Of a stretch of DNA of 60,879 nucleotides, positions 39,314 to 58,309 are shown piece by piece (the stretch's first letter is position 1; each line of letters starts with the position of its first letter). The notes under the pieces were generated by a model. It made no database searches. It was not told the origin of the DNA and worked only from the letters and a program-made list of their open reading frames with translations. The position numbers and the translations under genes were made by a program. The stretch comes from a virus (lineage: Duplodnaviria > Caudoviricetes). Where the stretch lies: the IMG/VR virus record IMGVR_UViG_3300021378_000024, positions 1 to 60,879 of that record; one strand, given 5' to 3'.

Positions 39314-39697
39314 AGCTACATGGTAACATGCAGTGCAGTGGCGCGCAATATACTACCCATATAGGCAGTTCTGGGTCCCATATGCCCTATTTTGCATATT
39401 TGAGGGGGTGGGGGGACCCCCCGGGGGGTCTTTTTATCGAAGGGGGTGGGGCTATGCCCGACCGAAATAGTCGGAAATGTGGCGTTGTTTGGCTGGGTTA
39501 ATATGTATACAGAGCGCGGGGCCGCCGGTCGTCTGCGGGGGTACCCCTCCGGTGGGGTCTGGCCAGACTGGGTTTCGTTATGCGTGGCGCATAATCGCGC
39601 GCCAATATGCGGCCATGCGCTGACAGACACGTTTGACCGTGATATAAGTGTCTTATCGAATCAGCAATAACGCTGACGATGTAACCGGAGCACTATC

Positions 39698-40219
39698 ATG
39701 ACTAACTCAATCGCTAATAACCCCGCAATCGCTGACGCAATCATTGCCACCGGCAAGGCTGAGGGCGGCGCCACCAAGGCCCACGCCGCTTTCTATGACA
39801 CGTGCGAGACATTGCACGGCCTCAATGTTATGGCCGACGACCTCAAGAGCGGCGGCCGTTACTATCAAATGGCATATGACCTGCTAGCAGAGTCGCGTTT
39901 GAACAAGACTGAGCTGGACACGTTGCGCGCTGAAGGCCCGATGAAGGCTGGCACGCCTAAGCACAAGATCGGCAACAAGATCGGCGCCGTTATGCGTAAC
40001 ATACGCAACAACCTGCGCAAGATCGAGGGAGCCGTCGCGGGCAAGCCAAAAGGCGAACCGGCCGGTTTCGTGGATCTTTGCATGAAGGACCTACAGGCGT
40101 CCTATGCTAGGGCCATGAAGGACCGGACAGGCGAACCGGCCGCAATCGACCATGCCGCCTTCATGGCGCACATCCAAGCCGCTGCCGACGTTCTGGGCAA
40201 GGCGCTTAAGGACAAGTAA
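39698..40219 (+). CDS. Hypothetical early protein
   Basis: 173 aa; GGAG SD; own terminator. Confidence 0.75.
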   Translation: MTNSIANNPAIADAIIATGKAEGGATKAHAAFYDTCETLHGLNVMADDLKSGGRYYQMAYDLLAESRLNKTELDTLRAEGPMKAGTPKHKIGNKIGAVMRNIRNNLRKIEGAVAGKPKGEPAGFVDLCMKDLQASYARAMKDRTGEPAAIDHAAFMAHIQAAADVLGKALKDK

Positions 40220-40226
40220 CGACACT

Positions 40227-40257
40227 GGGCGGCACCTTCGGGTGCCGCCCTTTTTTT
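40227..40257 (+). terminator. Rho-independent terminator
   Basis: GGGCGGCACC-TTCG-GGTGCCGCCC + T7. Confidence 0.9.
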
Positions 40258-40321
40258 GTGCCTTGGCGCGTCGCACCAGTTCCCCAGCATCAGGCACAGC
40301 GTGCGGCACGGGGCCGGTCTG

Positions 40322-40683
40322 ACCAGTTCCATCCACAGCATGAGGCACGTCGCACGGCCCGAAATCGGCCACAACCACAGCGCGAATCGCGTCTGGCGGC
40401 GTTATGCGCGGCGCATAACGAAAAAATTCCGGAAAAAATGTCGCCGCAAAACTAAGCTCCCTGCGCTTGCTAACGCTGCTTTGCTGCGTAGCGACGCTTA
40501 GGAGCTTACCAAGATTTTCAAATCTGTCAACCCCCCAAACCGCAAAATCTCACCAGTTCCATCCACAGCATGAGGCACGTTGACTGTTATGCGCCGCGCA
40601 TAACGACGGGAACATCCTAACCCATTGTATCTACGTAATGTTCTCAGATCCATGACCAGTTCCAGCCACAGCGTGAGGCCCGT
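40322..40683 (+). repeat. 29-bp direct repeats ACCAGTTCCATCCACAGCATGAGGCACGT
   Basis: Exact at 40322-40350 and 40552-40580; 26/29 at 40655-40683; partial at 40275. Confidence 0.9.
40503..40530 (-). promoter_or_regulatory. Possible leftward sigma70 promoter
   Basis: Minus strand TTGACA-N16-TAAGCT. Confidence 0.4.
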
Positions 40684-41152
40684 AAGCCGTTGATACTAAA
40701 CGAAAGTTCCCGAGTTTGCCCGAATGTTCTCGGCTCGGGAACATTTAAGTTATTGAAATCATTGGGAACAATAGCAATTGTTCCAATGTTCCCGGATTCC
40801 GAAGGTATACCCCAAGAAAAGTAAAAACGGAGTTCTGTATAAATGGTTATACACAGACGTTCGAAGCAAAAAAAGTCCGGATAACTTCGGAAAATGGGTA
40901 TTTTTGGAACAAAAGAACATTATGCAATATCAAGGACTTAGCATGACTCTATTATTATTATTATTATTCAAATACTTAACTACTACTACTACCATAACGT
41001 GCATAAAAAATCCTTTGTTTTCAATGCCCCCCAAATGTTCCCGGCCCCAAGAACAATCAGAACAATGCCCGGAACAATGCCATATTATGCGCCGAGCATA
41101 ATGTTACCACGTAAAATCTCACTTCCTATGTCAAATATCCTCCAGCTACATC

Positions 41153-41181
41153 TTGACATATAACGTGTTATATGATACACT
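41153..41181 (+). promoter_or_regulatory. Sigma70-type early promoter with an overlapping inverted repeat
   Basis: TTGACA-N17-TACACT; CATATAAC-GT-GTTATATG at 41157-41174. Confidence 0.75.
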
Positions 41182-41832
41182 CGAAGAGTGTTGTGTTTGA
41201 TGGGCTTGGTCGCCCGTGCTATTTGACATTGCTGCTCGCATTCTGCCTTGTCCGCCTCGCGCGGCATCGCGGTTTGCCCCTCTGCTAGGCTTCCATTATG
41301 CGTCCCGCATAACCCCGCCGATCATGCTAGACGACCTGCCGACCTATTGCCTCGGGGTGACGAAAAAATCCCGCTGCGTTGTGCGTCACGTCTCACAAGA
41401 TGAGCCCCCTGCTTCCTTGCCGCCTTCCACAAGCGGCCCGGTTCACCACCTATTATGCTCCGTGCATAATGGTTGGCTTACGCCGAGCACAATGCCCGGC
41501 GCCGCACCGGTGCGAAGTAAGCGCCAGACTTGCCTAAGAAGCTGTGTGTCCCCAAGGACAAAGACGTGCCGCCCCCAACCCGCGCCATGCGCGGGACGGA
41601 CAACCGACAAGATGCAAGACGGACCCGAAACACGGGCACGGACCCTCGCGATGCGAGGCCCGAACGAACATACAAAGCAGGCGTTCAACGAAACACTGCA
41701 CCATGCGGACTGACAACCCGCGCGGTGCTCGGGACAACACAACCCAACGCCGAGCATTATGCTCGCCCCTGCATAGCAGGGGACAACCACACCACGCCGA
41801 GCATTATGCTCAGCGCATAATAGGAGACCACC

Positions 41833-42129
41833 ATGACTACATTTGAAACGATCACCCTTTCCCTGCCTGCACACTGGCTTTGCCCTATCCTTTACGGCGA
41901 CACCAGCGGCCTTGACGAGGCCGAGGATCGTGCCTTTTCACGATGGCTGGACGACACCATCCGCGACATTGGTCACGGCACCCTGCCGACGATCGGCACC
42001 ATCAAGGACGACCCCTACTTCGCCCGGTATCACGACGCTGCCGAATACGGTGTGCTGGCGTGTGACTGCTACGACGTCGAGCTGTGTGTGCCTGCAACAC
42101 CAACGCCGATCGTTATGCGCGACGCATAA
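41833..42129 (+). CDS. Hypothetical early protein
   Basis: Palindrome + AGGAG upstream. Confidence 0.75.
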   Translation: MTTFETITLSLPAHWLCPILYGDTSGLDEAEDRAFSRWLDDTIRDIGHGTLPTIGTIKDDPYFARYHDAAEYGVLACDCYDVELCVPATPTPIVMRDA

Positions 42130-42142
42130 TAGGAGACTGACC

Positions 42143-42448
42143 ATGACGACCACTATAACAACTGCGGACGAGTTCTTTGATACCTACGTGCGCGACGGCG
42201 CATATGACCGCGAGGGCGGCCATGCCGCCCTGCAAAAGCTGCACAACACCGACCGCGGGGCGTTCTACCGCCTGATGACAAGCCCTGAATTTGTAGCGCG
42301 GGCTGTCGCAAACGCCCATGCCTTCGGCATTGTCGATGAGGTGCATGACAACGACGCGGAGATCGACGAGCTCATTGCCGAGGCCGAAGAGCTCGAAGAG
42401 CGTGCCGCCCACCTTCGTGCCTCCGCGGACGCGCTACGCGATGCGTAG
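42143..42448 (+). CDS. Hypothetical early protein
   Basis: ATG 42143 after palindrome + AGGAG. Confidence 0.75.
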   Translation: MTTTITTADEFFDTYVRDGAYDREGGHAALQKLHNTDRGAFYRLMTSPEFVARAVANAHAFGIVDEVHDNDAEIDELIAEAEELEERAAHLRASADALRDA

Positions 42449-42644
42449 GGCCACATGCGTCGACTGCGGCGATACATTCCCCCGGCGCCGTGCGGCGCTG
42501 GGCTACACCACATGCCTGTCGTGCGGCGATGCCGAAGCCGTTGCAGCCCGTGCGACATGGGCTGTCGTTCCCCTGCCCAAGCAGGGTTACACGCGCATCA
42601 CGCGCAAAGAAGAACTGCACCACCTCAACCAGAAGCCGCGCTGA
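42441..42644 (+). CDS. DksA/TraR-like C4 zinc-finger protein
   Basis: CVDCGDTFPRRRAALGYTTCLSC. Confidence 0.7.
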   Translation: MRRATCVDCGDTFPRRRAALGYTTCLSCGDAEAVAARATWAVVPLPKQGYTRITRKEELHHLNQKPR

Positions 42645-42717
42645 TTATGCGCCCCCCTGCATAGCAGGGGACACCACCACGCCGGGCATTATGCGCGGCG
42701 TATAATAGGAGCCCAAC

Positions 42718-43029
42718 ATGACTACACCATCCCACGTCCGCAAGTTTCTGGACATATCGACCGCACACATCACCGAAAACACTGCGGGGATGCTTGACGA
42801 CTCCGTGCATCAGTTCCTCGGGACTGCGCCGTGCATAGCCTACCCCCTAGGGGACACAGGCTGGCTTGTGTATGTGCCGTCTGATGACAGCCCGAACACC
42901 AATACACTCGCTGAGTTTCACCCAGACCTGCTGACCTGCATGGAATACGCCCGCCAGCACAACTGCGACTACATCATGTTCGATCAGGACGGCACCGTGA
43001 TCGACGACCTCCCTGCATATGATTGGTAA
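42718..43029 (+). CDS. Hypothetical protein (DUF5983-like)
   Basis: LDISTAHIT..GWLVYV..IMFDQDG..LPAYDW. Confidence 0.7.
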   Translation: MTTPSHVRKFLDISTAHITENTAGMLDDSVHQFLGTAPCIAYPLGDTGWLVYVPSDDSPNTNTLAEFHPDLLTCMEYARQHNCDYIMFDQDGTVIDDLPAYDW

Positions 43030-43072
43030 CGGCACTGATGAGACAGGCCAACCTTCAAGAAGGACTGAGAGA

Positions 43073-43315
43073 ATGGAATGGGATTTCCGCTTTGTGAACA
43101 TGCCGTCCGGCAACGGCGGTGATGACTGGATCGAACTGCGTGAGGTCTACTACAGCGACGACGGTAGCCTCATGGGTCACTCTAACCCATGCCCCGGCAG
43201 CGAGACTGTCGAGGGCATCAAGCAACTGGCGCAGTGGTGGCTGCGGGCAAGTGAGTTGCCCGTGCTGCACGAGAAGGACTTCCCGTCCGACTTTGAACCT
43301 GAAGCCAATTACTGA
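43073..43315 (+). CDS. Hypothetical protein
   Basis: MEWDFRFV..LREVYY; AAGGA SD. Confidence 0.7.
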   Translation: MEWDFRFVNMPSGNGGDDWIELREVYYSDDGSLMGHSNPCPGSETVEGIKQLAQWWLRASELPVLHEKDFPSDFEPEANY

Positions 43316-43328
43316 AAGGACTGAGAGC

Positions 43329-43541
43329 ATGAGCAAGTTTATTCTGTTTAGCCACCATACCTACTACCCCTACGGAGGGATGGGCGACTGCGAGGGTGTG
43401 TTCGACACCCTGCAAGATGCGCTGGCAGCGCCTCGTTTCGGGCCCAACTTCGAGGTGCTGCAAGTGCCTGAAATGATCGTCCACGAGCAAGACGGGCGAG
43501 CGATACCCATAACCGATTACATCAAACGCGAGGAGGAGTAA
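43329..43541 (+). CDS. Hypothetical protein
   Basis: YYPYGGMGD motif; AAGGA SD. Confidence 0.7.
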   Translation: MSKFILFSHHTYYPYGGMGDCEGVFDTLQDALAAPRFGPNFEVLQVPEMIVHEQDGRAIPITDYIKREEE

Positions 43542-43545
43542 CACC

Positions 43546-43914
43546 ATGAGCACCAAACGTATCACTCACGCCGACATCGTTGCCGACGATGCATTCCGCA
43601 AGGCCTTCTCGGCTATATGCCGACGCGCCCTGCCTTACATGGCTGAGGATGCCTACCACATGGACCTGATATTCGACGCCGAACAAGCCACACGGCTCAA
43701 CCCCGGCGACCGCTTCTACCTGCTGGTGCGTAAGCTGGGGACCAACAACTTCGGATACCCGGACGACGCCGTGCGGCACTGCGACCCGGCTATGAGTGAC
43801 GGGCAGGCTGTCCTGCGTGTCATGCGTGGCTCATACGACACCTTCACCGTCACCGTGCACTACGACAGGAAGCGCGGGCATTATGCTCAGCGCATAACAG
43901 GAGAACCGCTATGA
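43546..43914 (+). CDS. Hypothetical protein
   Basis: GGAGGAG SD; 122 aa. Confidence 0.7.
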   Translation: MSTKRITHADIVADDAFRKAFSAICRRALPYMAEDAYHMDLIFDAEQATRLNPGDRFYLLVRKLGTNNFGYPDDAVRHCDPAMSDGQAVLRVMRGSYDTFTVTVHYDRKRGHYAQRITGEPL

Positions 43915-44135
43915 TCGGCCACGACGTTGGCCATGGCCGTGCCAGCGGCGCTGGCCGTGGCAACGGCAACGGCAACGGCTTCGGCAAAGGTGCCGGAGAC
44001 GGCGACGGCTATGGCGTTGGCATCGGTAACGACAGCGGCTTCGGCAACGGCAGCGGCCGTGGCGATGGCAACGGCTCCGGTGACGGCATGGCCCCCGGCT
44101 ATGGCGACGGCGCCGGATACGGAGAAGCACTATGA
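43911..44135 (+). CDS. Gly-rich (G-x repeat) protein
   Basis: GNGNGNGFGKGAGDGDGYG; palindrome + AGGAG upstream. Confidence 0.6.
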   Translation: MIGHDVGHGRASGAGRGNGNGNGFGKGAGDGDGYGVGIGNDSGFGNGSGRGDGNGSGDGMAPGYGDGAGYGEAL

Positions 44136-44359
44136 TCGACAACGGCGACGGCAGCGGCAAAGGCACCGCCAACGGCGCTGGCGACGGATACGGCGGCGGG
44201 TATGGCACCGGCAGTGCCAGCGGCTATGGCGATGGATACCACCGATGCGGTCGCGGCACCGGCTACGGCCACGAAGAAACAGCATTACACATACGCATGA
44301 AGGAGACACAGCGTGTTCGACACACTCATAAACACCCCAGTAATCATCCGTTCAAATGA
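44132..44359 (+). CDS. Second Gly-rich protein
   Basis: GDGSG..GDGYGGGYGTG; ATGA coupling. Confidence 0.5.
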   Translation: MIDNGDGSGKGTANGAGDGYGGGYGTGSASGYGDGYHRCGRGTGYGHEETALHIRMKETQRVRHTHKHPSNHPFK

Positions 44360-44621
44360 CAGTGGGGTGCATTACGGCTACCTCGCCGAAGTCATCGACA
44401 GCGGGCGGACTGTCCGGCTCACCAACAGCCGTCGCTTGTGGAAGTGGAAGGTTGCCGGAAACGGCATATCCCTGAGCGAGGTTGCTATCACAGGAATCGA
44501 CCACAGCGAGTCGCGCATCACCATGCCGCTGCCCAACCTTGTGGTTGTGGGCGTGTGCGAGATCATCCCCGCGCACGGCATGGCGACAGCCACAATCGAA
44601 GGTGCCCCCGTGGCATCATAA
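44313..44621 (+). CDS. DUF6948-like protein
   Basis: VIIRS..SGVHYG..SRRLWKW..SLSEVA..G..EIIP. Confidence 0.7.
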   Translation: MFDTLINTPVIIRSNDSGVHYGYLAEVIDSGRTVRLTNSRRLWKWKVAGNGISLSEVAITGIDHSESRITMPLPNLVVVGVCEIIPAHGMATATIEGAPVAS

Positions 44622-44672
44622 GCTACACCAATGCCGGGCATTATGCTCGGCGCATAACTACGGAGAACCACT

Positions 44673-45767
44673 ATGACTAACCAAGCACATGCAATGTATA
44701 ACGTCGACCTCGATCAGGCGACGCAGATGATCGCCACCATGGGCCACAAGCGCACCATTCTGGTGCAGGGCCACATGGGCACCGGCAAGTCCAGCATGCT
44801 CAAGACGCTGGCGGATATGTTTCCCAACCATATCCCCTGCTACTTCGACGCCACGACCAAGGACCTCGGCGACCTGATGCTGCCGCGCATCGCCGAACTC
44901 GATGCAGGTGCAAGCTATGTCAGCTACGCACCCAACGAAGAGCTGGGCATCCACCACAGTCGGCCTGTGATCGTCATGCTGGACGAGTATGGCAAGGCCA
45001 ACCCCGCCGTGAAGCAGGGTCTAACTGCCTTCATGCTGGAGCGTCGCATGGGCAACCTCAAGCTGCACCCGGACAGCATTGTGTTTGCCACGACAAACCT
45101 CGGCGGCGAGGGCGTGGGCGACATGCTGGTGGCGCACCAGCGCAACCGCATCACCGTGGTGACGCTGAAGAAGCCCGACTATATGAACTACATCGAGTGG
45201 GGTATCAACAACGGCATCGACCACACCCTGCTCGGATGGGTCAAGGACAACCCCCATGTGTTCCAGTCCTTCGAGGATGTGCAGAACCCCGAAGACAACC
45301 CCTACATCTTCCACCCTCGCTCGCAGCGGGCGGCCTTCGTCACGCCACGGTCGCTCGAAGCTGCATCGGACTGGCTAAAGGTAAGGGACCGCCTCGACGA
45401 CATGAGCCTCACCGCGGCGCTGATCGGCACGGTGGGCGACCGGGCGGCCATGGACCTCATGGCCTTCGTGCGTCTGTCCAACGACCTGCCGACACTCAAG
45501 TCGATCAAGGAGACCCCCGAGACGGCCAAGGTGCCAGAGTCCGCCGCAGCCGTGTGCATGGTGGTCTATCGCACACTGGCCAGCATCGAGGCCGATTGGC
45601 TTGACGCGTGGATGACATACCTAAACCGGCTGCCTGCCGAGGCGCAGGGCCTGTTCGCTAACGGCGTGCGGGCACCGAAGTATGCCAAGCAGGGCCTTGT
45701 CATGACAAACAAGGCCTTCACTCAGTGGGCTCGGGCAAAAAGTCACTTGTTCGCCGCGGATGTGTAA
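44673..45767 (+). CDS. MoxR-like AAA+ ATPase
   Basis: GHMGTGKS, MLDE, ATTN, RNR and TPRSL motifs. Confidence 0.85.
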   Translation: MTNQAHAMYNVDLDQATQMIATMGHKRTILVQGHMGTGKSSMLKTLADMFPNHIPCYFDATTKDLGDLMLPRIAELDAGASYVSYAPNEELGIHHSRPVIVMLDEYGKANPAVKQGLTAFMLERRMGNLKLHPDSIVFATTNLGGEGVGDMLVAHQRNRITVVTLKKPDYMNYIEWGINNGIDHTLLGWVKDNPHVFQSFEDVQNPEDNPYIFHPRSQRAAFVTPRSLEAASDWLKVRDRLDDMSLTAALIGTVGDRAAMDLMAFVRLSNDLPTLKSIKETPETAKVPESAAAVCMVVYRTLASIEADWLDAWMTYLNRLPAEAQGLFANGVRAPKYAKQGLVMTNKAFTQWARAKSHLFAADV

Positions 45768-45790
45768 CTGGTCATAAATCGCCAAAATTT

Positions 45791-45826
45791 TTACGGCGAT
45801 TTAACGGCGATTTAACGGCGATTTAA
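45791..45826. repeat. 11-bp tandem repeat (TTAACGGCGAT) x~3
   Basis: ttacggcgat ttaacggcga tttaacggcg atttaa. Confidence 0.85.
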
Positions 45827-45875
45827 CCCGCCCGGCGCCTTATGCGCCGGGCATAACAACCTGAAAGGTAATACA

Positions 45876-46772: not shown

Positions 46773-46834
46773 CCAAACGCAGACACCAACCAGCGGGGCG
46801 CATTATGCGCCCCGCATAATTACAGGAGAACAAC

Positions 46835-48043: not shown

Positions 48044-48085
48044 CGACGCCGGGCGTTATGCCCGGCACATAATAGGAGAGAAGAT

Positions 48086-48510: not shown

Positions 48511-49122
48511 ATGGCACAGAAATACAGCGCGGCGTTCATCGAAGCGCATCGTGACTTCAACGTCGACCACCGGTGGTGGGAGAGCATATACGAAGACTTC
48601 TATCGCATCTGCACGATCCTCGGCATCGAGCTGAACAAGAACGAGCCGAACTTCTCGGGCTTCTGGTCGCAGGGTGACGGCGCCTCGTGGGCCGGGCGAT
48701 ACAGGTCCCGTGCGCTTAGTCTTAATACGCGAAGCGGATATGCCCCAACATACGACCTAGCACCTGCACAGATACGCGAGCACGCGCCGCAGGACGAAGA
48801 ACTCCACCGTATCGCAGATGAGCTGTGCTTGCTGGCCCGCATCTACGGGCCGACCTACGCCGTCGTGGGTCGCAGCTCCAGCCACTACGTGCACTCAAAC
48901 ACCATGTGCATCAACGAGTGGGAGTATGACGACGACCGGGACAGTGATGACGTCGACGGGGTGATCCTCGACCACATCGAAGAGGCCCTGCTTGCTACGT
49001 TTACGGCGCTGGCAGAGTGGCTCTACACGTCGCTGGATGCAGAATACGAGTACCTGATAAGTGACGAAGCCGTGATCGAGACACTGGAAGCTAACGATAT
49101 TGAAGAGGAAGCGGTTGCGTAA
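48511..49122 (+). CDS. Hypothetical protein
   Basis: FSGFWSQGDGAS..EYEYL motifs. Confidence 0.75.
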   Translation: MAQKYSAAFIEAHRDFNVDHRWWESIYEDFYRICTILGIELNKNEPNFSGFWSQGDGASWAGRYRSRALSLNTRSGYAPTYDLAPAQIREHAPQDEELHRIADELCLLARIYGPTYAVVGRSSSHYVHSNTMCINEWEYDDDRDSDDVDGVILDHIEEALLATFTALAEWLYTSLDAEYEYLISDEAVIETLEANDIEEEAVA

Positions 49123-49154
49123 TTATGCGCCCCGCATAACAGGAGAGAAGTGAA

Positions 49155-49979: not shown

Positions 49980-50372
49980 ATGGACCTGAAGACCAAAGCA
50001 ATAGAGAAGATCGCCCGCCAGCTCAAGATCTTGGGCTGTGATTACATGATCGTGCCAGACGGTGACGCCGACAAGGCGATCATCAACGGCAACTTCACGC
50101 ACCACAAGCGGACGAAGCGTGGTGAGTGCACCAAGCACATAGCCAGCTATGCCGCCAACCTACAGCCGGGTGAGAGCGTCACCATACCTGTCGGCGAGTT
50201 CTCACTGGATACCCTCCAGAGTGCGGTGTCGGCCTATGCCTTCCGCACCTTCGGTAAGGGTAACTACATGTCCGGCAGGACGCCGGATGAGACCGGTGTC
50301 GAGCTCCTCTGCCTCGGCCAGCCCGAGGACACAGACGAGCCAACAGACGAACACGTTATGCGGGAGGAATAA
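49980..50372 (+). CDS. Hypothetical protein
   Basis: AGGAG before ATG 49980. Confidence 0.65.
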   Translation: MDLKTKAIEKIARQLKILGCDYMIVPDGDADKAIINGNFTHHKRTKRGECTKHIASYAANLQPGESVTIPVGEFSLDTLQSAVSAYAFRTFGKGNYMSGRTPDETGVELLCLGQPEDTDEPTDEHVMREE

Positions 50373-51036: not shown

Positions 51037-51279
51037 ATGACTGACTATCAACCGACATTCGGACCGGTAGTGATCGAATGGGACGACAACCCCGGAACGC
51101 TGGTGGCCAAGTGCCAGAGCGGACGGTTTGATTGCAGAGGGCGCATCGGTGGGGCGTGCGTTTGGCATGAGCACGAAGACGGCGAGGCGAGAAAACTGCC
51201 CGACGACATGCTGACACCTAACTGGTGCGAATATAAGGCCGCCGCGCTGGCTGACGCCGAGGAGATGAACAATGGCTAA
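51037..51279 (+). CDS. Hypothetical Cys-containing protein
   Basis: AAGGA SD; PNWC motif. Confidence 0.6.
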   Translation: MTDYQPTFGPVVIEWDDNPGTLVAKCQSGRFDCRGRIGGACVWHEHEDGEARKLPDDMLTPNWCEYKAAALADAEEMNNG

Positions 51280-51547
51280 TTGGTCAGACTTTGAAGTGCA
51301 CCCGATTGGGACAAGCGACCGGATCATGCAAGGGGCGCGTGGGCCGGGAGTCGGCCTCAATGATGACCCGCAAGCAGGGCTCCGTCGTGGGTACTGGATG
51401 GCCCACGACGGACCGATACACATGTCCAACATGTGCGACGAGCATGTCCTGAATGCGTACCGGACGTGCATTTGGCACGGCAACGACACCAAGGCAGACG
51501 AGCTACTGACTGAGCTCGAACACCGAGACCTAGACTGGAGAGTATGA
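51272..51547 (+). CDS. Hypothetical protein
   Basis: GGAG SD; coupled ORF. Confidence 0.6.
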   Translation: MANWSDFEVHPIGTSDRIMQGARGPGVGLNDDPQAGLRRGYWMAHDGPIHMSNMCDEHVLNAYRTCIWHGNDTKADELLTELEHRDLDWRV

Positions 51548-52068
51548 TGCCCGAGCACGAAGAACTTAGCGATATGGATGATATCGACGACGCGATTGCT
51601 GCGGTGACGCTAGGTATGGCGCTTATCGTCGCCGTGTTTGTCGCCGCTCTTTTTGTCCTCACCATGTTGACACCAACCGCAGCCACCGCCGGTCCTGACC
51701 GGGCTTATATCCTCGCAGGCTCAAAGCACCTTGGCACGGACCACGAGTTCAACGAGATCAACCCCGGTTTGTTCCTGACATGGGAACTGGATCGCTTCGA
51801 CGTCACCGTGGGGGCATATCACAACAGCTACGGCAGCGGGTCTCTTGCTGCCAGCGTGGCCTATCCCCTTGTCAGGGGCGAGGACTGGTCCGTGGACGCC
51901 TTCGCAGGGCTGGCGACATACTTCGGCACCACCAACCCCAACATCGTTCCTATGGCCGGTCTACAGGCCCGCTATGGGCCTGCGTTCGTCCAGTATGTCC
52001 CGGTGCCGGGTGGTCAGTATATGGACGGTCTTGTTTCGTTTGGCCTGACCTTTGAGGTTGGAGACTGA
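51544..52068 (+). CDS. Putative exported outer-membrane beta-barrel protein (PagP-like pattern)
   Basis: Signal/TM segment, then SKH..FNEINPGL..GAYHNSY and alternating beta strands ending FGLTFEV. Confidence 0.5.
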   Translation: MMPEHEELSDMDDIDDAIAAVTLGMALIVAVFVAALFVLTMLTPTAATAGPDRAYILAGSKHLGTDHEFNEINPGLFLTWELDRFDVTVGAYHNSYGSGSLAASVAYPLVRGEDWSVDAFAGLATYFGTTNPNIVPMAGLQARYGPAFVQYVPVPGGQYMDGLVSFGLTFEVGD

Positions 52069-52070
52069 CA

Positions 52071-52343
52071 ATGACCGACTTTGAAACCAACCCCGTTGGC
52101 ACAGGGGAGCGGATCGAGGAACTTGAGGCGAAGTTGGCGAAGGCGATTGCAGAAATGGAAAAGGCTGATGGATACCTTACACGCCTACAAACTCGTAACT
52201 CCGAACCTCTCAATAGTGTAAATGGCTGCGGCAGCAAAAAGGGACGCAGCCAATATACTGCAATGGTAAGAAACGAAGCCAGAGAATATTGGGCATCGTT
52301 AGGGAACACCCTCGCAGAACTGAAAGGACAAGACGATGAGTGA
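52071..52343 (+). CDS. Hypothetical coiled-coil protein
   Basis: RIEELEAKLAKA..LAELKGQDDE. Confidence 0.65.
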   Translation: MTDFETNPVGTGERIEELEAKLAKAIAEMEKADGYLTRLQTRNSEPLNSVNGCGSKKGRSQYTAMVRNEAREYWASLGNTLAELKGQDDE

Positions 52344-52616
52344 CAATCTCATAAACTTAGATGAACACCGCCCGCATATCACAGCATACGTCGCCTGCAT
52401 TGACTGCGCTAAGGACTGGATAGCTGTCGCACCCGCAGACACGCTTCACTTTAACTGCCCGGAGTGCGACAAACTTTCCGGTGTGGTTGTTGATCCTGCC
52501 AACCCTGAGTTTATCAACGACTTCATGCGGCCAGCCAAAAAGAAGGCAGAGAAACAGCGCCGCACAATGGTGATGCTAAACGCGGCCCGCATGATTGACG
52601 AGGGGGCTTTTGACTG

Positions 52617-52617
<1 letters not shown>
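52336..52617 (+). CDS. Zinc-ribbon protein
   Basis: CIDC..CPEC. Confidence 0.65.
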
Positions 52618-52858
<241 letters not shown>

Positions 52859-52862
<4 letters not shown>

Positions 52863-53158
52863 TGACTAAGTGGACACTACCAGAGGGGCGCAAGCCCCTC
52901 ACCGACGCCGACATTGCAGCACTGACGCGCCGTCTCGCTGGCACGGCTGTTGACTACAAGGAGCTGTATCAGGCTGCCAAGCGTGACGCAGAAGAGGCCG
53001 AGGCCTATGTCGCGGAACTGGAAGCCAAGCTGAAAGCCTCAGAGGACTTCGGTCTGCGTCTGGAGCGCTTTGCGGATCAAGCCGGAGATACATTTTTGTT
53101 GCAGAGGGCGCGTGAGTTCCTCGCAGAACTGAAAGGACAAGACGATGGAAGAAATTGA
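52859..53158 (+). CDS. Hypothetical coiled-coil protein
   Basis: ELEAKLKA..LAELKGQDD. Confidence 0.65.
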
Positions 53159-53618
53159 AGTGATGTGCACAACCGTGCTCGCCACAAACACGGCGTTTGC
53201 GGTGCGGGCCGACACAGGGGAGCAAGTGTTTGTCCCCTCTGCGGTAGCCCATGCCGCTCAGCTACAAGTCGGTGACATCGTGCGGGCGACCGTTGTGCCT
53301 AATACACACTACCCGGAAAAGACACCGTGGTTCGCCATTCGCGTCGAGCGGGACGCCCCCGTGCCAGCTTTGATCGCGCAGGATAGCCTCGACCAGCGCA
53401 TTGTCGAATACCTCGACGTACAACCGGCCTATGCCACCACGTCAGAGGTTGCAGAGGAGTTCAACGTAGACACGACGATCGCGGGCAATGCACTGAACCG
53501 CGTGTTCCGTCGGGGTCAAGCCGTGAGAGCCGATGTGTATTCCAAGCCGGATCAACAGCGGGCTTCGTTCTGTTTGTGGGCCGCCAACACAAGCAGGTTT
53601 GTGGAGGTCGATCTGTGA
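53145..53618 (+). CDS. OB-fold-like + winged-HTH protein
   Basis: GEQVFVP..GDIV N-term; TTSEVAEEF..GNALNR HTH-like C-term. Confidence 0.55.
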   Translation: MEEIEVMCTTVLATNTAFAVRADTGEQVFVPSAVAHAAQLQVGDIVRATVVPNTHYPEKTPWFAIRVERDAPVPALIAQDSLDQRIVEYLDVQPAYATTSEVAEEFNVDTTIAGNALNRVFRRGQAVRADVYSKPDQQRASFCLWAANTSRFVEVDL

Positions 53619-53842
53619 CCCCTGCAGCCAAGAGAGCCAAGGAGGCCAAGGACGAGTTCGACGCCATGGTCAAAGCAGCCGCCCCCGGAGAACGCATAAC
53701 CTACCACACAGGGGACCGCGCGGGGGGCCCGTACAAGTATGCGGCATACGCAGCATACGAGAGGGGCGACGTGTTGCTGGTGCAGCGTAGGGTCGGGGTA
53801 GCACTGTTCGACTACCTCGCTGTTCGGGTGAAGAAGAAATGA
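53615..53842 (+). CDS. Hypothetical protein
   Basis: GTG start; PGERITYHTG..LVQRR..FDYLA. Confidence 0.6.
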   Translation: MTPAAKRAKEAKDEFDAMVKAAAPGERITYHTGDRAGGPYKYAAYAAYERGDVLLVQRRVGVALFDYLAVRVKKK

Positions 53843-54099
53843 GGCGGCGTCCGATACCGCGCCGGAAACCGGCAACGAAGGCGACCGAGCGGCAGCGCGA
53901 CGAGCAGCTGGCCATGGTCATGCACCTGCGAGAGAACGAGGGGATGACGTTCGGGCAGATGGCCCCCCATGTGCACATGACACGGCACGCGTGCATCGGT
54001 GCCTACCATCGCCTGCGTGATGCCTATGAGGCGAGTTGCGAGTGCACTAAACCCGAAAACAAAGATGGCGGCATGGAGCCCCTATGGTGGAGGACCTGA
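53839..54099 (+). CDS. Small HTH-like protein (GcrA N-terminus-like)
   Basis: EGMTFGQMA..MTRHACIG..HRL. Confidence 0.5.
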   Translation: MRRRPIPRRKPATKATERQRDEQLAMVMHLRENEGMTFGQMAPHVHMTRHACIGAYHRLRDAYEASCECTKPENKDGGMEPLWWRT

Positions 54100-54100
54100 C

Positions 54101-54487
54101 ATGACACAGACTGAAGAAAGATGCTGGCAATACCTGCTGGCAAACCGGGATGCCACGACCGAAGACGTGGTGCTCAACTGCGATGTATCGCTGGGCTATG
54201 CCGAGGAGCTCATGGCTCGGATCAGCAGTCCCAACTGGCGTGAACCTGTCAGTGCCCTCGAAGGGCAGGTCGGCGGGTCCCACTACAAGGATATGGAGGT
54301 CCAGCCTTGGCAGGCCATGGAAGCGTGGCTCACTCCCGAAGAGTACCGAGGCTATCATAAGGGTGTAGCCATTGGCTACCTCGCACGGGAACGGCAAAAA
54401 GGGGGACTGCAGGATATCGAGAAGGCCATCCACCACCTGAACAGGCTTGTGGAGGTAGAACGTGACAGACCTACCAAAGCAGATTGA
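54101..54487 (+). CDS. DUF3310-like protein
   Basis: QVGGSHY..Y..R..KGGLQDIEKA. Confidence 0.8.
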   Translation: MTQTEERCWQYLLANRDATTEDVVLNCDVSLGYAEELMARISSPNWREPVSALEGQVGGSHYKDMEVQPWQAMEAWLTPEEYRGYHKGVAIGYLARERQKGGLQDIEKAIHHLNRLVEVERDRPTKAD

Positions 54488-54528
54488 AGGCAGCGCTTAT
54501 GCGCGGCGCATAACAAAGGAGAACCAAC

Positions 54529-55065
54529 ATGCACATCATGATCGACATTGAGACTATGGGCACGCGCCCAACTGCACCTATCGTATCGTTCGGGGCCGTG
54601 GCGTTCGACGCCGACGGCATCCACCATAAGTTCTACCGCGCGGTGGACCTCAACTCTGCCGTTGTCAGCGGTGCCGTCATCGAGCCCGGCACTGTACTGT
54701 GGTGGTTGGACCAGAGCGACGACGCCCGGGCAGCCCTGACTACCGACATCGTCGAGCCCATTGGCGACGTACTGGTGGCATTCCAAGAGTTTGTTGCAGG
54801 TCTACCGGGCGGGGTCGGCGCCCTGCGTGGCGTCTGGGGCAACGGTGCGACATTCGACAACGTGCTGGTTGCCGAGGCGTACAAGCGGTTGGACATGCTG
54901 GTGCCATGGCCATTCTGGAAGGACCGTTGCTATCGCACCGTGAGGACCATGTTTCCGGCGGTGGAACTGGTCAGAAATGGAACGCACCACCATGCGCTAG
55001 CCGACGCCGAGACGCAAGCGCAGCACCTGATCGCGATCAGCGAGAGTGCGGGCGGCCTGCTATGA
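54529..55065 (+). CDS. DEDDh 3'-5' exonuclease (exonuclease VIII-like/DUF5051)
   Basis: MIDIET, WGNGATFD and HHALADA motifs. Confidence 0.9.
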   Translation: MHIMIDIETMGTRPTAPIVSFGAVAFDADGIHHKFYRAVDLNSAVVSGAVIEPGTVLWWLDQSDDARAALTTDIVEPIGDVLVAFQEFVAGLPGGVGALRGVWGNGATFDNVLVAEAYKRLDMLVPWPFWKDRCYRTVRTMFPAVELVRNGTHHHALADAETQAQHLIAISESAGGLL

Positions 55066-55505
55066 ACCCGATAGATACACCCCGACTGCAAGAGTGGGCC
55101 ATCGACATGGCCAAGCACGTGGCCAAGTTGAGCAAGGACCCCTCCACGAAAGTGGGGGCGGTCATCTTCGACCCGAAGAGACGCATCGTCAGTGCGGGCT
55201 ACAACGGTTTCGCCCGAGGTGTGGATGACACGGCGGAGCGACTGACCAACCGCGACGCCAAGTTGAAGATGACACTGCACGCCGAGAAGAACGCCATCCT
55301 GTTCGCCACAGCTCCTCTGGACGGCTGCACAATGGCGGTCACTCACCCCTGTTGCGCGCAGTGTGCCGCGCAGGCTATTCAAGCGGGCATCAAGCACGTC
55401 GTGTGGCCGCGCCCCGCGCCAGAGTTCATGGCGCGTTGGGCCGAAGACTACAAGCTGAGCAAGGCGCAGTTCGCAGAGGTGGGCGTTACCGTGGAGGAAG
55501 TGTGA
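55062..55505 (+). CDS. dCMP deaminase
   Basis: SKDPSTKVGA, GYNGF, HAEKNA and PCCAQC motifs. Confidence 0.92.
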   Translation: MNPIDTPRLQEWAIDMAKHVAKLSKDPSTKVGAVIFDPKRRIVSAGYNGFARGVDDTAERLTNRDAKLKMTLHAEKNAILFATAPLDGCTMAVTHPCCAQCAAQAIQAGIKHVVWPRPAPEFMARWAEDYKLSKAQFAEVGVTVEEV

Positions 55506-57340
55506 TGGACACTATCGCATGCGACTTTGAGACGTTCTACTCCCGCGAGTATTCACTATCCAAGATGACCACCGAAGAGTATATCCGCGACCCGCGGTTT
55601 CAGGTGATCGGCGTCTCGGTAAAGGTCAATGAGGGCGATACCGGGTGGTTCTCCGGCACGGCCAAGGAGACCTTGGCATTCCTGCGCCAGTACGACTGGG
55701 AAAACAGCGCTATGATTGCGCACAACACGCTGTTCGACGGTGCGATCATGTCTTGGCGGTGCGGTATCAGGCCGAAAGTGCTGATCGACACACTGTCCAT
55801 GTCTCGGGCCATGTTTGGCGTCGACGCCGGGCACAGCCTCAAGGCACTGGCGGGTCGACTGGGCCTGCCGGCCAAAGGCGACGAAGTAACTCGCGCAATC
55901 GGCAAGCGCCGCGCCGATTTCACCGCGAGGGAGATGCACGACTACGGCGAATACTGCCGCCTCGACGTGCACCTGACATACGAAGCGTTCCGCAAGATGA
56001 CGCTCATGGGGTTCCCCAAGAGCGAGCTGAAGCTGATCGACCTTACGCTGAAGATGTTCACCGACCCTGCGCTGGAGCTCGACGTGCCGCACCTGCAGGG
56101 GCACCTGATACGGACGCAACGAGAGAAAGAGCAGATGCTCGCTGATGCGGGTATAGCCGACCGCAGGGACCTGCTGTCAAACCAGAAGTTCGCTGACCTG
56201 CTACGCGGCCTTGGTGTCGAGCCGCCGATGAAGACCAGCCCGGCAACGGGTAAGCCAACGTATGCATTTGCCAAGAACGACGAGAGCTTTCAGGCGTTGG
56301 CAGAGCACGACGACTTGCGGGTACAGACGCTTGTATCGGCGCGGCTGGGCACCAAGAGCACGCTAGAGGAAACGCGCACCGAACGGTTCATCTCCATCGG
56401 ACAGCGGGGCAAGTTCCCAGTGCCGCTGCGCTACTACGCCGCCCACACCGGGCGGTGGGGCGGCACTGACAAGATCAACATGCAGAACCTGCCGTCGCGT
56501 GGACCGAACGCCAAGCAGCTCAAGAAGGCCATCCGGGCCCCGGAGGGCTACATGCTGGTGGACTGCGACTCATCGCAGATCGAGGCCCGCGTGCTGGCAT
56601 GGCTGGCGGAGCAGGAAGATCTGGTGGCGGCGTTCGCCCGGGGCGAGGACGTCTACAAGATCATGGCGTCCAAAATATACGGCGTCGACGTCGCCGATAT
56701 CGACAAAGGCCAGAGGCAGGTGGGCAAGACCGTCATCCTCGGTGCCGGGTACGGCGTCGGCCACAACAAGCTGCAGCTATTCCTCAAGACGCAGGCGGGG
56801 GTAGACGTGGACCTCGACGAGGCCAAGCGCATCATCGACATTTACCGCCACTTAAACGCTCGCATCAGTGGGCTGTGGAAGTCAGCGCAACGCACCGTAG
56901 AATACCTCGAACGCGGTGACGCACTCGCTTTCGGCCGGCCCGGCGTGCTCGGCGTCGACGTTGACGACACAGCCATCGTACTGCCAAACGGATTACCTAT
57001 CCGATACGACGGACTGTTTGCTGAACAGGGGGAGAAGGGGTACGAGTATCAGTACAAAACGCGTCGCGGACCGAAGCGGCTATATGGTGGCGCGTGCGTC
57101 GAGAATGTAACCCAAGCACTTGCACGTATCGTGGTTGGCGAACAGATGCTTAAAATAGCGAAACGGTATCGCGTGGTGTTGACTGTGCATGACAGCGTGG
57201 TATCCTGTGTACCCGAGGCCGAGGTAGGCGAGGCGCGGGAGTATATCGAAACCTGCATGCGCTGGACCCCGGACTGGGCCGAAGGGCTACCCGTCAACTG
57301 CGAGTCTGGTGTTGGCGAGAGCTATGGAGATTGCGAATGA
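55505..57340 (+). CDS. DNA polymerase family A with 3'-5' exonuclease domain
   Basis: DFET, HNTLFD, HTGR, DSSQIEARV, RQVGKTVILGAGYG and TVHDS motifs. Confidence 0.95.
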   Translation: MDTIACDFETFYSREYSLSKMTTEEYIRDPRFQVIGVSVKVNEGDTGWFSGTAKETLAFLRQYDWENSAMIAHNTLFDGAIMSWRCGIRPKVLIDTLSMSRAMFGVDAGHSLKALAGRLGLPAKGDEVTRAIGKRRADFTAREMHDYGEYCRLDVHLTYEAFRKMTLMGFPKSELKLIDLTLKMFTDPALELDVPHLQGHLIRTQREKEQMLADAGIADRRDLLSNQKFADLLRGLGVEPPMKTSPATGKPTYAFAKNDESFQALAEHDDLRVQTLVSARLGTKSTLEETRTERFISIGQRGKFPVPLRYYAAHTGRWGGTDKINMQNLPSRGPNAKQLKKAIRAPEGYMLVDCDSSQIEARVLAWLAEQEDLVAAFARGEDVYKIMASKIYGVDVADIDKGQRQVGKTVILGAGYGVGHNKLQLFLKTQAGVDVDLDEAKRIIDIYRHLNARISGLWKSAQRTVEYLERGDALAFGRPGVLGVDVDDTAIVLPNGLPIRYDGLFAEQGEKGYEYQYKTRRGPKRLYGGACVENVTQALARIVVGEQMLKIAKRYRVVLTVHDSVVSCVPEAEVGEAREYIETCMRWTPDWAEGLPVNCESGVGESYGDCE

Positions 57341-58014
57341 GCAAGCCAGCATCCCCCGCACCGTGGTCGTTCAGCCGGATAAAGGCCTTTGAGACCTGCC
57401 CAAAGCAGTTCTATCACACAACAGTGCTCAAGCAGTTTCCCTATCAGGAAACAGAGGCGATGCGCTACGGCACCGAGTTTCACAAGGCGGCGGAAGACTT
57501 CATCCGTGACGGCACCCCGGTGCCTGAGCGGTTCGCCTTCGCCAAGCCCGCGCTTGATGCGCTGGCGGCCAAGCCGGGCGAGAAACTCTGTGAGCAAAAG
57601 CTGGGCATCACTGCCGGGCTCGAACCCTGCGGCTTCTTCGATAACGACGTCTGGTTCCGTGGCATCGTGGACTTGCTCATCATCGACGGCGACGAAGCGA
57701 CCATAGTAGATTATAAGACCGGCAAGTCCGCTCGCTACGCCGAAAAGGGCCAACTCGAGCTCATGGCGCTATCAGTGCTCCGCCACTTTCCGCAGGTGCA
57801 GAAAATCCGTGCTGGTCTGATCTTTGTCATCGCCAACGACTTCGTGAAGGCCAGCTATGAACGCACAGGACAGAAAGAACTGTGGAGGAAATGGCTCTCG
57901 AACTATGCTAGTATGGAGACGGCGTTCGAGAAGGGTGTGTGGAACCCCAAGCCGAGCGGACTGTGCAAACGGCACTGCCCCGTGCAGGAGTGCCCCCACA
58001 ATGGACTATACTGA
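57337..58014 (+). CDS. PD-(D/E)XK Cas4-like exonuclease
   Basis: WSFS..CP, GIVDL, DYKTGK, QL and C-terminal Cys cluster. Confidence 0.85.
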   Translation: MSKPASPAPWSFSRIKAFETCPKQFYHTTVLKQFPYQETEAMRYGTEFHKAAEDFIRDGTPVPERFAFAKPALDALAAKPGEKLCEQKLGITAGLEPCGFFDNDVWFRGIVDLLIIDGDEATIVDYKTGKSARYAEKGQLELMALSVLRHFPQVQKIRAGLIFVIANDFVKASYERTGQKELWRKWLSNYASMETAFEKGVWNPKPSGLCKRHCPVQECPHNGLY

Positions 58015-58280
58015 TGCCATACAAGAACAACGCAGACCGGCCATACGGTCGTGAATACCAGCTCCAGAAAGCTCGCGGTGAGCAAGAGGCCCGCAACGAG
58101 CGGGCCCGGGCCCGCTATGCGTTCGACAAGAAGAACGGCAAGGCAGCCCGCAAGGGCAAAGACCTTGCCCACAGCAAGCCACTGTCCCGGGGCGGGTCTA
58201 ACAAAGACGGCGTAAAGCTGCAGAGCCCAAGCAAGAACCGTGCCGGCGGAGGTCGCATCAGCAAGCCGCCCAAGAAATAA
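58014..58280 (+). CDS. Small HNH-like protein
   Basis: GKDLAHSKPLSRGGSN..SKNRA. Confidence 0.6.
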   Translation: MPYKNNADRPYGREYQLQKARGEQEARNERARARYAFDKKNGKAARKGKDLAHSKPLSRGGSNKDGVKLQSPSKNRAGGGRISKPPKK

Positions 58281-58309
58281 ATTATGCGCCACGCATAATA
58301 GGAGAACCC

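Follow-up and report, generated by a model that had tools for sequence, protein, structure and literature searches.

A conserved 17-bp palindrome overlapped by a variable hairpin at early-gene junctions of an uncultured phage family

We analysed a 17-bp palindrome, TTATGC-N5-GCATAA, that recurs in the early/replication arm of the virus record IMGVR_UViG_3300021378_000024 (Duplodnaviria; Caudoviricetes) from the IMG/VR database. The window referred to throughout is this whole record (60,879 bp, 60% G+C, 99% complete). Its structural arm consists of minus-strand genes at 3951-39313 and encodes terminase, portal, capsid, tail and ejection proteins as well as an internal virion protein of 2261 amino acids (aa). 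The early/replication arm consists of plus-strand genes running from 39698 past the end of the window and on to 3672, and its content includes an AAA ATPase, DUF3150, a DUF2201 peptidase/vWA protein, a 3'-5' exonuclease, PolA, a second exonuclease, an SNF2 helicase and a DUF927 prim-pol. Megablast against deposited phages returned no close relative, and the nearest portal proteins, found in Roseobacter, Pelagibacter, Planktothrix and Caulobacter phages, are 34-48% identical. A first-pass annotation of the sequence had reported seventeen copies of the palindrome at gene starts and proposed that they represent either the regulon of one dimeric protein or a gene-junction element.

Results

Number and placement of the palindrome

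The exact palindrome occurs 15 times in the window, compared with a mean of 0.00 in 100 dinucleotide-preserving shuffles. When up to two mismatches were allowed, 18 sites were found against 1.10 ± 1.11 expected (largest shuffle: 6), and the three added sites at 42689, 48056 and 50356 have one mismatch each (Table 1). All seventeen copies reported initially are thus sites, but 15 are exact and two (42689 and 48056) carry a mismatch. The copy at 50356, initially listed as degenerate, is likewise a site, the third with one mismatch, and contains the Shine-Dalgarno sequence for gene 50372 in its N5. It may have arisen by chance or be a decayed copy. All 18 sites lie within 39578-58298. The absence from the structural arm, initially judged by eye, holds in a scan of 3951-39313, which gave zero palindromes even at two or fewer mismatches. 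By our own arithmetic, the chance of finding 18 of 18 sites in the ~25.5-kb plus-strand arm is ~1.6e-7. The half sites noted near 801, 41757 and 42645 also exist (GCATAA at 803, TTATGC at 41757 and 42645), and as a class lone half sites show no enrichment (late arm: GCATAA, 4 vs. 3.8 expected; TTATGC, 2 vs. 5.4 expected). At 41757-41790 and 42645-42680 we observed a repeated module, in which a lone left half site is followed by a 7-bp hairpin whose loop holds a near right half site; each module lies ~45 nucleotides (nt) 5' of a full palindrome.

At the 11 junction sites from 41804 on, an ATG follows 11-19 nt past the palindrome and opens an open reading frame (ORF) of 74-511 codons. The leaders of all 11 hold a GGAG, AGGAG or AAGG tract, which confirms the described position of the palindromes ahead of Shine-Dalgarno tracts, and the downstream genes named in the first-pass annotation (AAA ATPase, DUF3150-like, vWA-peptidase, exonuclease and SNF2 helicase) are upheld by family hits. 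In an ORF list compiled by hand, the plus strand has 12 gaps of at least 20 nt between 41.8 and 60.9 kb, and 9 of them hold a palindrome, the exceptions being 43315-43546, 55065-55502 and 59845-59896, and three palindromes of the window overlap ORF ends. The six copies between 39578 and 41453 fall into a 2.2-kb region that shows nucleotide-level conservation with relatives in all frames and has no family hits, and which is therefore probably non-coding. These six copies have neither a Shine-Dalgarno tract nor an upstream hairpin arm. The region surrounding the first of them (39457-39600) is conserved at 70-73% in loci of four relatives.

Relatives and unrelated carriers

Scanning IMG/VR with a 15-base version of the motif yielded 50 loci, ~30 of which (our count) encode proteins 35-100% identical to window proteins, many loci having several copies. 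Loci and genomes are cited below by our L and G numbers. The palindrome is a trait of an uncultured family of 50-63 kb phages and is found in the early arm throughout. The copies fall without exception into 40470-57672 of G001 (58.5 kb; 11 of 11), 20347-40948 of G002 (49.8 kb; 19 of 19), 1662-19201 of G003 (63 kb, terminal repeats; 11 of 11), adjoining the left end, and 472-9966 of the fragment G005 (14 of 14), which has its structural genes at 10196-19442.

In nine relatives a copy lies within a coding sequence (L037 11507, L016 7457, L052 13525 and six more loci), spelled D-Y-A-Q-x-I-I; four of these nine rows are near-identical, which leaves about five independent lineages. The A/T-ending synonymous codons involved are fixed (GAT 8/8, TAT 9/9, ATA 9/9), with usage in the early genes of the window being 15%, 37% and 11%, respectively. 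This shows that the intragenic copy is under synonymous-site selection. The protein encoded by the gene carrying it joins a winged-helix domain at its N-terminus to DUF3310-like or other enzyme domains, and the palindrome is located in the codons of the presumed recognition helix. The window ortholog (54101-54487) has another helix and no internal copy, with the site at 54497 lying just 3' of the gene.

Further, palindromes bound rearranged gene modules. The DUF3150 and DUF2201 peptidase/vWA genes of G003 are in swapped order compared with the window, G001 and G002, and its 49155-like gene has been relocated in front of the AAA gene. The moved modules are each bounded by palindromes (3992, 5682, 6828, 8751 and 9703). 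One junction in L032 looks hybrid, with an arm of one type and a core of another.

Two phage types unrelated to the family also carry the motif. In the provirus G004 (L048 1290-2130), the palindrome covers the spacer and -10 of a promoter, TTGACA-N17-CATAAT, located between a CI-like helix-turn-helix (HTH) gene (1750-2061, minus strand) and a divergent gene for a 102-aa protein. Two further copies, 35 bp apart, precede a neighbouring gene for a small secreted protein. G006 (L007 9226-11887; 57 kb, 36% G+C, terminal repeats) has three exact copies and one with a single mismatch in the 2.7 kb next to its right end. Two of these copies immediately precede start sites of small early genes, and no protein common with the window was detected. 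The G+C contents of the three carrier types are 36%, about 58% and 60%. In bacterial and archaeal genomes, none of the 80 loci among the matches listed (at least 120 found) has more than one distinct site. A search of the main texts of the literature, which a logo printed in a figure or supplement could escape, found no description of the motif; the sequence matches listed were primer-type coincidences, and neither half site occurs in the main text of PMC9410906.

Sequence anatomy and symmetric variants

The sequence logo was built from 95 of 173 unique sites in 31 sources, namely those whose orientation was evident from a Shine-Dalgarno tract and start codon downstream; the 78 unorientable sites were excluded. 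TTAT and ATAA are invariant in 95/95 oriented sites. Positions 5, 6, 12 and 13 are conserved at 91-95%, G7 at 75% and C11 at 82%, with the three central bases being free. The resulting consensus, TTATGCG-N3-CGCATAA, thus has a 7-N3-7 layout with half-site centres 11 bp apart.

The 31 sources (359 kb) contain 113 exact sites and 23 single-mismatch sites. Among double variants, 14 are symmetric and compensated, 3 are uncompensated in the same pair and 8 are of other kinds, compared with a prior of 18:576 for compensated to all other combinations. As compensated doubles dominate despite the ~30-fold prior for uncompensated ones, variation is mostly symmetric. Sites in G003 comprise 8 of the type TTATAC-N5-GTATAA, 2 of the type TTATGC/GCATAA and 1 hybrid, where we calculate that ~4 hybrids would be expected. 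Symmetric variants occur in batches within single genomes, which may be explained by module exchange at palindromes. A reading of the motif as a mini-ORF of four codons (ATG at positions 3-5, TAA at 15-17) was ruled out by ATA in 9 of the 11 G003 sites.

A covarying hairpin overlaps the palindrome at junctions

At gene junctions, N5 together with the TGC on its left and the GC on its right is complementary to a GC-rich upstream tract, and the TTA(T) of the left half site is left as the loop of the hairpin. We tested this pairing by folding the upstream 20 nt joined to palindrome positions 1-13 for 55 sites, after dropping two L007 rows and the mis-oriented window site 41296. The mean folding energy was -11.96 kcal/mol, compared with -8.00 ± 0.35 kcal/mol when arms and cores were re-paired (200 permutations, best -9.03), and the mirror test on the downstream side gave -2.6. 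In a fixed register, all five N5 bases pair with the arm in 29/95 oriented sites, and orthologous junctions bear different, fully compensated stems. The hairpin is consistently found 5' of the palindrome, often right after or spanning the preceding stop codon.

As RNA, 9 of the 11 window junctions fold into the upstream-arm hairpin with stems of 6-10 pairs and energies of -10 to -21 kcal/mol. The hairpin that the palindrome could form alone (-0.2 to -5.4 kcal/mol) is excluded by it at these 9 junctions. For junctions 42113 and 58282 and the six early-region copies, which have no arm, the palindrome hairpin is the sole option. No U-tract follows the junction hairpins, where CAUAA and then the Shine-Dalgarno tract come next, and a sense-strand terminator scan called none of them; a canonical terminator of the window phage is located at 40227-40260. 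The missing U-tract indicates that the junction hairpins are not canonical intrinsic terminators. Rfam 15 gave zero matches at the gathering score in the whole window. The ratio of G-U to A-C pairs is 15:32 in total and 5:18 for N5 alone, compared with 0.35 from base composition, so that wobble pairs do not single out the folding strand, and sense and antisense folding energies are alike (-11.96 vs. -12.49 kcal/mol).

The gene-junction element of the first-pass annotation is therefore upheld and is richer than claimed, with a covarying hairpin overlapping the palindrome and junctions that bound shuffled modules.

Promoters, early leader and polymerase

The only strong sigma70-like promoter found, at 41153-41181, is well conserved (41150-41173 96% identical in L052, 41153-41173 100% in L051) and is probably the start of a long early transcript across the junction cassettes. 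Between 46 and 60.9 kb, 5 sigma70-like promoters were found vs. 4.7 expected. Given promoter-like sites at chance level past 46 kb and the conserved promoter at 41153-41181, we infer long rightward transcripts.

The palindrome itself does not behave as a sigma70 promoter. A -35 with at least 5/6 matches, 16-18 bp from the CATAA(N) hexamer, occurs in 1/346 site orientations, and matches of at least 4/6 occur in 16/346 (4.6%) at sites vs. 155/1384 (11%) in shifted controls. The only family site with a good -35 is in G002 (L052 2277-2937), where a TTGACA-N17-CATAAG promoter has its 17-bp spacer and -10 overlaid by the palindrome and drives a leftward gene for a 205-aa HNH-like protein inserted in the early region.

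A virion or T7-like RNA polymerase of the phage is unlikely to read the palindrome as a promoter, no such gene being detected. The T7-like RNA polymerase family PF00940 was not found in six frames of G000, G001, G003 and G006, and the two-barrel motif DxDGD is absent from called genes except for one instance in a structural protein. Neither the 2261-aa protein nor its 21-sequence profile matched an RNA polymerase in PDB, where a very divergent enzyme could escape; the best PDB hit of the profile is the internal virion protein 9sfn_G (E 4.6e-8). Homologs of the 2261-aa protein range from 1376 to 2577 aa, some with PF18858. The early arm is likely transcribed by host RNA polymerase. As a separate observation, the 2261-aa protein (3951-10736, minus strand) has an HExxH motif at residues 1107-1111. 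The motif is invariant in 21 homologs, suggesting that an ejected protein carries a zinc peptidase module.

Several other features were observed around the early promoter. The non-coding DNA at 40276-40690 contains about four copies of a ~28-bp direct repeat, one of which abuts the palindrome at 40587, and the repeat and palindrome recur as a module three times in L056 and twice in L037; the repeats could be origin iterons or sites of another protein. Between them and the promoter, 40940-41000 is an origin-like AT-rich tract of trinucleotide microsatellites (TTA and CTA runs) with a G+C content far below the genome mean. The ~640-nt leader from the promoter to the first gene contains a conserved hairpin (41698-41728, within the block 41596-41762) with no Rfam match. 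Six phages retain this hairpin, in which both partners have changed at two pairs (A-U to G-C and G-C to A-U); it is a possible regulatory leader RNA.

Candidate binding proteins

None of the three binders suggested in the first-pass annotation is supported by our comparison. The protein at 53145 is a winged-helix protein with a hypervariable recognition helix that differs in every relative despite the identical motif. For 53839, Pfam gave no hit, and tblastn (E ≤ 1e-3) detected no match in the stretches retrieved from G001, G002, G003 and G005; our impression by eye of a GcrA-like protein was discarded because PF07750 finds nothing in the window. The protein at 60288 is a true HTH_17 protein that scores above the Pfam threshold. 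It occurs in G001 (64% identity), G002 (53% over the longer ORF) and G003 (35%) and is absent from G004 and G006. Its helix exists in at least four versions among relatives and does not track the motif variant, since L035 combines the G003-type helix with TTATGC sites. We also noted a conserved acidic tail in this protein (60288-60548), Q-x-E-F/L-D-F/L, which we take to resemble a sliding-clamp-binding motif. Two further candidates were rejected: the winged-helix/DUF3310 protein whose gene carries the intragenic copy, as its window ortholog differs in the helix with the same motif, and the CI-like and divergent proteins of G004, which have no significant match in the window.

Other features of the window

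The best phage matches of the DUF2201 peptidase/vWA protein (~31% identity) are in roughly 75-80 kb Acinetobacter and Vibrio phages, which we presume to be N4-like. G+C falls to 0.51-0.52 across 26000-30000, compared with 0.60-0.66 around it. The dip spans two tail-protein genes at 26229-30205 and suggests that host-recognition genes were recently acquired. The 113-aa protein encoded at 57939-58280 is very basic (pI 10.8) and includes an HNH-like but degenerate segment, D-x-x-H ... G-G-x-N ... N; the protein is conserved at 84-87% in G001 and G002 and 56% in G003. Two neighbouring small genes at 43911-44359 encode glycine-rich repeat proteins (G-N-G/G-Y-G units). Relatives hold several such genes, some of which begin 1-2 nt past a palindrome without a Shine-Dalgarno sequence.

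Table 1. Palindromes, junction cassettes and associated features of the window
Feature	Position	Strand	Remarks
Variant junction before prim-pol gene 826	780..808	+	8-bp hairpin, then right half site alone
Prim-pol gene	826	+	early arm
Palindrome	39578..39594	.	exact; divergent control region, 5' of first plus-strand gene 39698; no upstream arm; self-hairpin as RNA
Palindrome	40402..40418	.	exact; non-coding early region
Palindrome	40587..40603	.	exact; right after one copy of the ~28-bp early-region repeat
Palindrome	41085..41101	.	exact; ~52 bp 5' of -35 of the conserved sigma70-like promoter (about -95)
Sigma70-like promoter	41153..41181	+	10/12 consensus matches, with TG
Palindrome	41296..41312	.	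exact; ~110 nt 3' of the sigma70-like promoter (about +116); position kept in relatives
Palindrome	41453..41469	.	exact; early leader
Junction cassette before gene 41833	41795..41820	+	hairpin 41795-41815 overlaps exact palindrome 41804-41820
Palindrome before gene 42143	42113..42129	.	exact; TAA is the stop of ORF 41833-42129; no upstream arm
Junction cassette before gene 42718	42681..42705	+	one-mismatch palindrome 42689-42705; upstream-arm hairpin -16.0 kcal/mol
Junction cassette before gene 43911	43872..43897	+	exact palindrome from 43881; within final 34 nt of ORF 43546-43914
Junction cassette before AAA ATPase gene	44633..44657	+	exact palindrome from 44641; hairpin
AAA ATPase gene	44673	+	family hit
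Junction cassette before DUF3150 gene	45830..45856	+	exact palindrome from 45840; perfect 9-bp arm pairing, -20.3 kcal/mol
DUF3150 gene	45876	+	family hit
Junction cassette before DUF2201 peptidase/vWA gene	46793..46819	+	exact palindrome from 46803; perfect 10-bp arm pairing, -21.3 kcal/mol
DUF2201 peptidase/vWA gene	46835	+	family hit
Junction cassette before gene 48086	48048..48072	+	one-mismatch palindrome 48056-48072; hairpin -16.4 kcal/mol
Junction cassette before gene 49155	49111..49139	+	exact palindrome from 49123, abutted by stop codon of 48511-49122
Palindrome, one mismatch	50356..50372	.	overlaps end of ORF 49914-50372; N5 includes the Shine-Dalgarno of gene 50372
Junction cassette before Rv2179c-like exonuclease gene	54490..54513	+	exact palindrome from 54497; hairpin
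Rv2179c-like 3'-5' exonuclease gene	54529	+	family hit
Palindrome before SNF2 helicase gene	58282..58298	.	exact; no upstream arm
SNF2 helicase gene	58310	+	family hit

Discussion

We tentatively favour the reading that the palindrome is a duplex-DNA operator for a dimeric regulator, and that its copies form a stoperator-like early-arm regulon fused to an intercistronic hairpin. The earlier proposal of a regulon of one dimeric protein is thereby the best-supported one, by virtue of the dyad, the 7-N3-7 layout, the copy at synonymous codons and the sigma70-promoter overlaps, and it stands as a prediction; we infer protein binding, the dimeric state and the sign and mechanism of regulation from these features. 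The invariant halves are reverse complements of each other yet are unpaired in the transcript at most junctions, and RNA folding therefore leaves their symmetry unexplained. RNA explanations also offer little for copies away from gene starts, i.e., the six early-region copies and the intragenic one, which speaks for a duplex-DNA reading. The location over a sigma70 spacer and -10 in G002 and G004 is an operator-type placement. Further points in favour are the mostly symmetric variation, the early-arm restriction kept across the family, the likely use of host polymerase and the copies in the unrelated G006.

Under the operator reading, a symmetric dimer would read both half sites, which are one helical turn apart, and all copies would form one regulon limited to the early/replication arm. 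The reader protein would probably be phage-encoded. Host RNA polymerase would make long rightward transcripts from promoter 41153-41181, which would place most copies inside transcribed DNA, between blocks of translationally coupled genes. Bound copies would attenuate or silence the early arm block by block, either as a roadblock or through a silencing complex of the stoperator kind, while copies over a promoter spacer and -10 would directly repress initiation and those at 41085 and 41296 could add looping. The junction operator would be fused to a separate, GC-rich variable hairpin whose 3' arm is made up of the left half of the operator and its uncontacted spacer. This hairpin would most likely act on the RNA of the upstream cistron by 3'-end protection or weak termination. 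As the cassettes share identical 17 bp, they would double as exchange points for gene modules.

A number of observations weigh against the operator reading. Its main weakness is that, in phages with the same invariant motif, the recognition helix varies in every recognisable DNA-binding protein of the early arm, which is unexpected for a phage-encoded reader of a fixed sequence. With an invariant site and no invariant reader, explanations based on RNA, promoters, linkers or host factors are kept alive. Flanking bases are asymmetric, with A at position 0 in 62% and C at position 18 in 75% of sites, which are non-complementary, and single mismatches may be unevenly split between the two halves; a pure symmetric dimer site predicts neither. 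The deficit of hybrids in G003 is equally compatible with a dimer, with intramolecular pairing and with spread by copying. Selection also acts on some single-stranded form of these nucleotides, as the covariation between N5 and the arm shows. Promoter overlaps total only two (G002 and G004), the family itself contributing one in 346 orientations. Finally, neither an integrase nor a CI-like family or other sign of lysogeny was found in the ORFs scanned, which include the structural arm in part.

A somewhat unlikely alternative is that the palindrome functions at the RNA level, as a junction element with two mutually exclusive hairpins in the sense transcript and AU-rich tetramers in the loop and the 3' foot. 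A ribonuclease or RNA-binding protein would then cut early RNA, protect 3' ends or gate the Shine-Dalgarno tract 1-19 nt downstream. The covariation of N5 with the upstream arm, including full N5 pairing in 29 of 95 sites, is directly accounted for in this way, as are the constant upstream position of the hairpin, the Shine-Dalgarno tract close behind it, the asymmetric flanks and the two variant junctions (780-808 and 41757) that hold a hairpin and a single half site. However, the dyad halves are unable to pair in RNA at 9 of the 11 window junctions, six window copies lack both arm and Shine-Dalgarno tract, and cleavage or ribosome gating makes little sense for the intragenic copy at synonymous sites. 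Sense-strand G-U pairs are not enriched over A-C pairs, and neither a U-tract nor an Rfam match was found. We consider it quite unlikely that the palindrome is simply a recombination linker or self-spreading junction repeat, with 17 bp and hairpin kept by cassette exchange among co-infecting relatives and no dedicated binder. The palindrome-bounded modules of G003, the hybrid-looking L032 junction and the batches of symmetric variants within genomes, as copying would give, all agree with such a linker, but homology-driven exchange needs no palindrome, and 12-14 invariant bases beside a freely changing arm would be left unexplained, as would the intragenic synonymous-codon copy and the reuse in the unrelated G004 and G006. 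Exchange is also compatible with the operator reading as a side effect rather than an alternative to it.

It is very unlikely, in our estimate, that the palindrome is a promoter-type element at which transcription of the gene block to its right starts, either by host polymerase that an unrecognised phage factor redirects or from an extruded hairpin with a 7-bp stem and 3-nt loop in the manner of N4. Placement right before gene blocks and invariance across phages do resemble phage-specific promoters, the 7-N3-7 layout equals N4 hairpin-promoter geometry, and the DUF2201 peptidase/vWA protein has its best phage matches in the ~75-80 kb Acinetobacter and Vibrio phages presumed to be N4-like. In addition, sigma70-like promoters are not enriched between 46 and 60.9 kb, and the genes of some relatives that begin 1-2 nt past a palindrome with no Shine-Dalgarno sequence would fit leaderless transcripts. 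Against this, no RNA polymerase gene was detected and the giant virion protein matches an internal virion protein. The Shine-Dalgarno tract often starts 1 nt past the palindrome or lies inside N5, at 50356 in the window and 3138 in G003, and the palindrome itself is therefore transcribed there. A perfect palindrome would also fire in both directions, and the overlap with a separate sigma70 promoter is an operator-style placement. Least probable of all, and highly doubtful, is a binding site of a conserved host transcription factor exploited by phages. It would account for an invariant motif alongside varying phage DNA-binding proteins and for the same palindrome in three unrelated phage types, but the G+C contents of these carriers indicate that their hosts probably differ, and none of the 80 bacterial and archaeal loci among the matches listed has more than one site. 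Further, we know of no host operator with this sequence.

An unlikely but more far-reaching version of the operator reading is a two-layer switch of an undescribed type, in which the same 13 nt would be read as duplex by the dimer and as the 3' arm of a single-stranded hairpin, be it RNA or extruded DNA. If this were true, occupancy by the protein would be linked to hairpin formation at each block of early genes, and a single factor would allow a lytic phage to time or meter about a dozen transcription units. The leader hairpin 41698-41728 would possibly license read-through, and the 17 bp would also be the module-exchange site of the family.

By analogy, the closest known systems in working principle appear to be stoperators, the dispersed repressor sites of phiC31 and PeSL elements. 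The comparison with stoperators and PeSL elements made in the first-pass annotation is thus apt as an analogy, but the palindrome element lacks defining features of both. Cluster A mycobacteriophages with repressors of the L5 gp71 type have more than 20 copies of one short stoperator site, proposed to stop elongation; some copies fall within promoters and many occupy short gaps between genes in transcribed DNA (PMC9283540, PMC4557955). The 18 sites of the window are similarly found in 9 of 12 gaps of at least 20 nt between 41.8 and 60.9 kb. However, stoperators are asymmetric 13-mers that are bound by a monomer and depend on orientation, whereas the window site is a perfect 17-bp palindrome that is confined to one arm and fused to a covarying hairpin. 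They also belong to temperate phages with a known repressor gene, and none was found in the window ORFs scanned, with the structural arm partly scanned. One of these reports gives 18-30 dispersed repressor sites for the phiC31 and L5 genomes (PMC4557955). Like the window, phiC31 has many conserved inverted-repeat copies dispersed in intergenic phage DNA, but it is temperate, its repressor is known and its site is unrelated in sequence to the window palindrome. The repressor sites of this Streptomyces phage are inverted repeats of ~17 bp, and we know of no overlapping covarying hairpin at them. T4-type PeSL elements combine a stem-loop with a conserved motif before early genes and mark points of module exchange (PMC4122927). 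The window element shares a stem-loop and conserved motif before early genes at the bounds of rearranged modules. The conserved part of PeSL elements is a sigma70-type promoter (-35, N17, -10), whereas here it is a palindrome overlapping the stem-loop, with a good -35 in 1/346 orientations.

Other systems share single traits. Lambda-type CI/Cro operators are also 17-bp dyads with half sites one helical turn apart, and the G004 palindrome sits over spacer and -10 in a lambda-like switch region. Such operators number 3-6 and are clustered at promoters, unlike the 11-19 copies of the window family, which lie mostly in transcribed intergenic DNA without promoters. N4 early promoters, three in number and read by the virion RNA polymerase, are inverted repeats with a 5-7 bp stem and a 3-nt loop; the 7-N3-7 consensus before early genes is similar, but no virion RNA polymerase is detectable in the window phage. 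Like intrinsic terminators, the junctions have a GC-rich hairpin, yet they lack the U-tract. What is new among multi-site phage operators would be the overlapping covarying hairpin, the limitation to the early arm in an apparently lytic family and the intragenic copy selected at synonymous sites.

In conclusion, to our knowledge multi-site operators acting inside transcribed DNA have been documented only for a few temperate actinophages, and the palindrome system described here belongs to an apparently lytic, uncultured family of aquatic phages, in which the site is strong enough to fix rare codons. It provides a testable handle on how early genes may be scheduled without a polymerase of the phage's own, since a single 17-bp site can serve as bait for the factor, and it points to how gene modules shuffle at fixed junctions. 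Recurrence of the same palindrome in two unrelated phages hints that its reader may be widespread.

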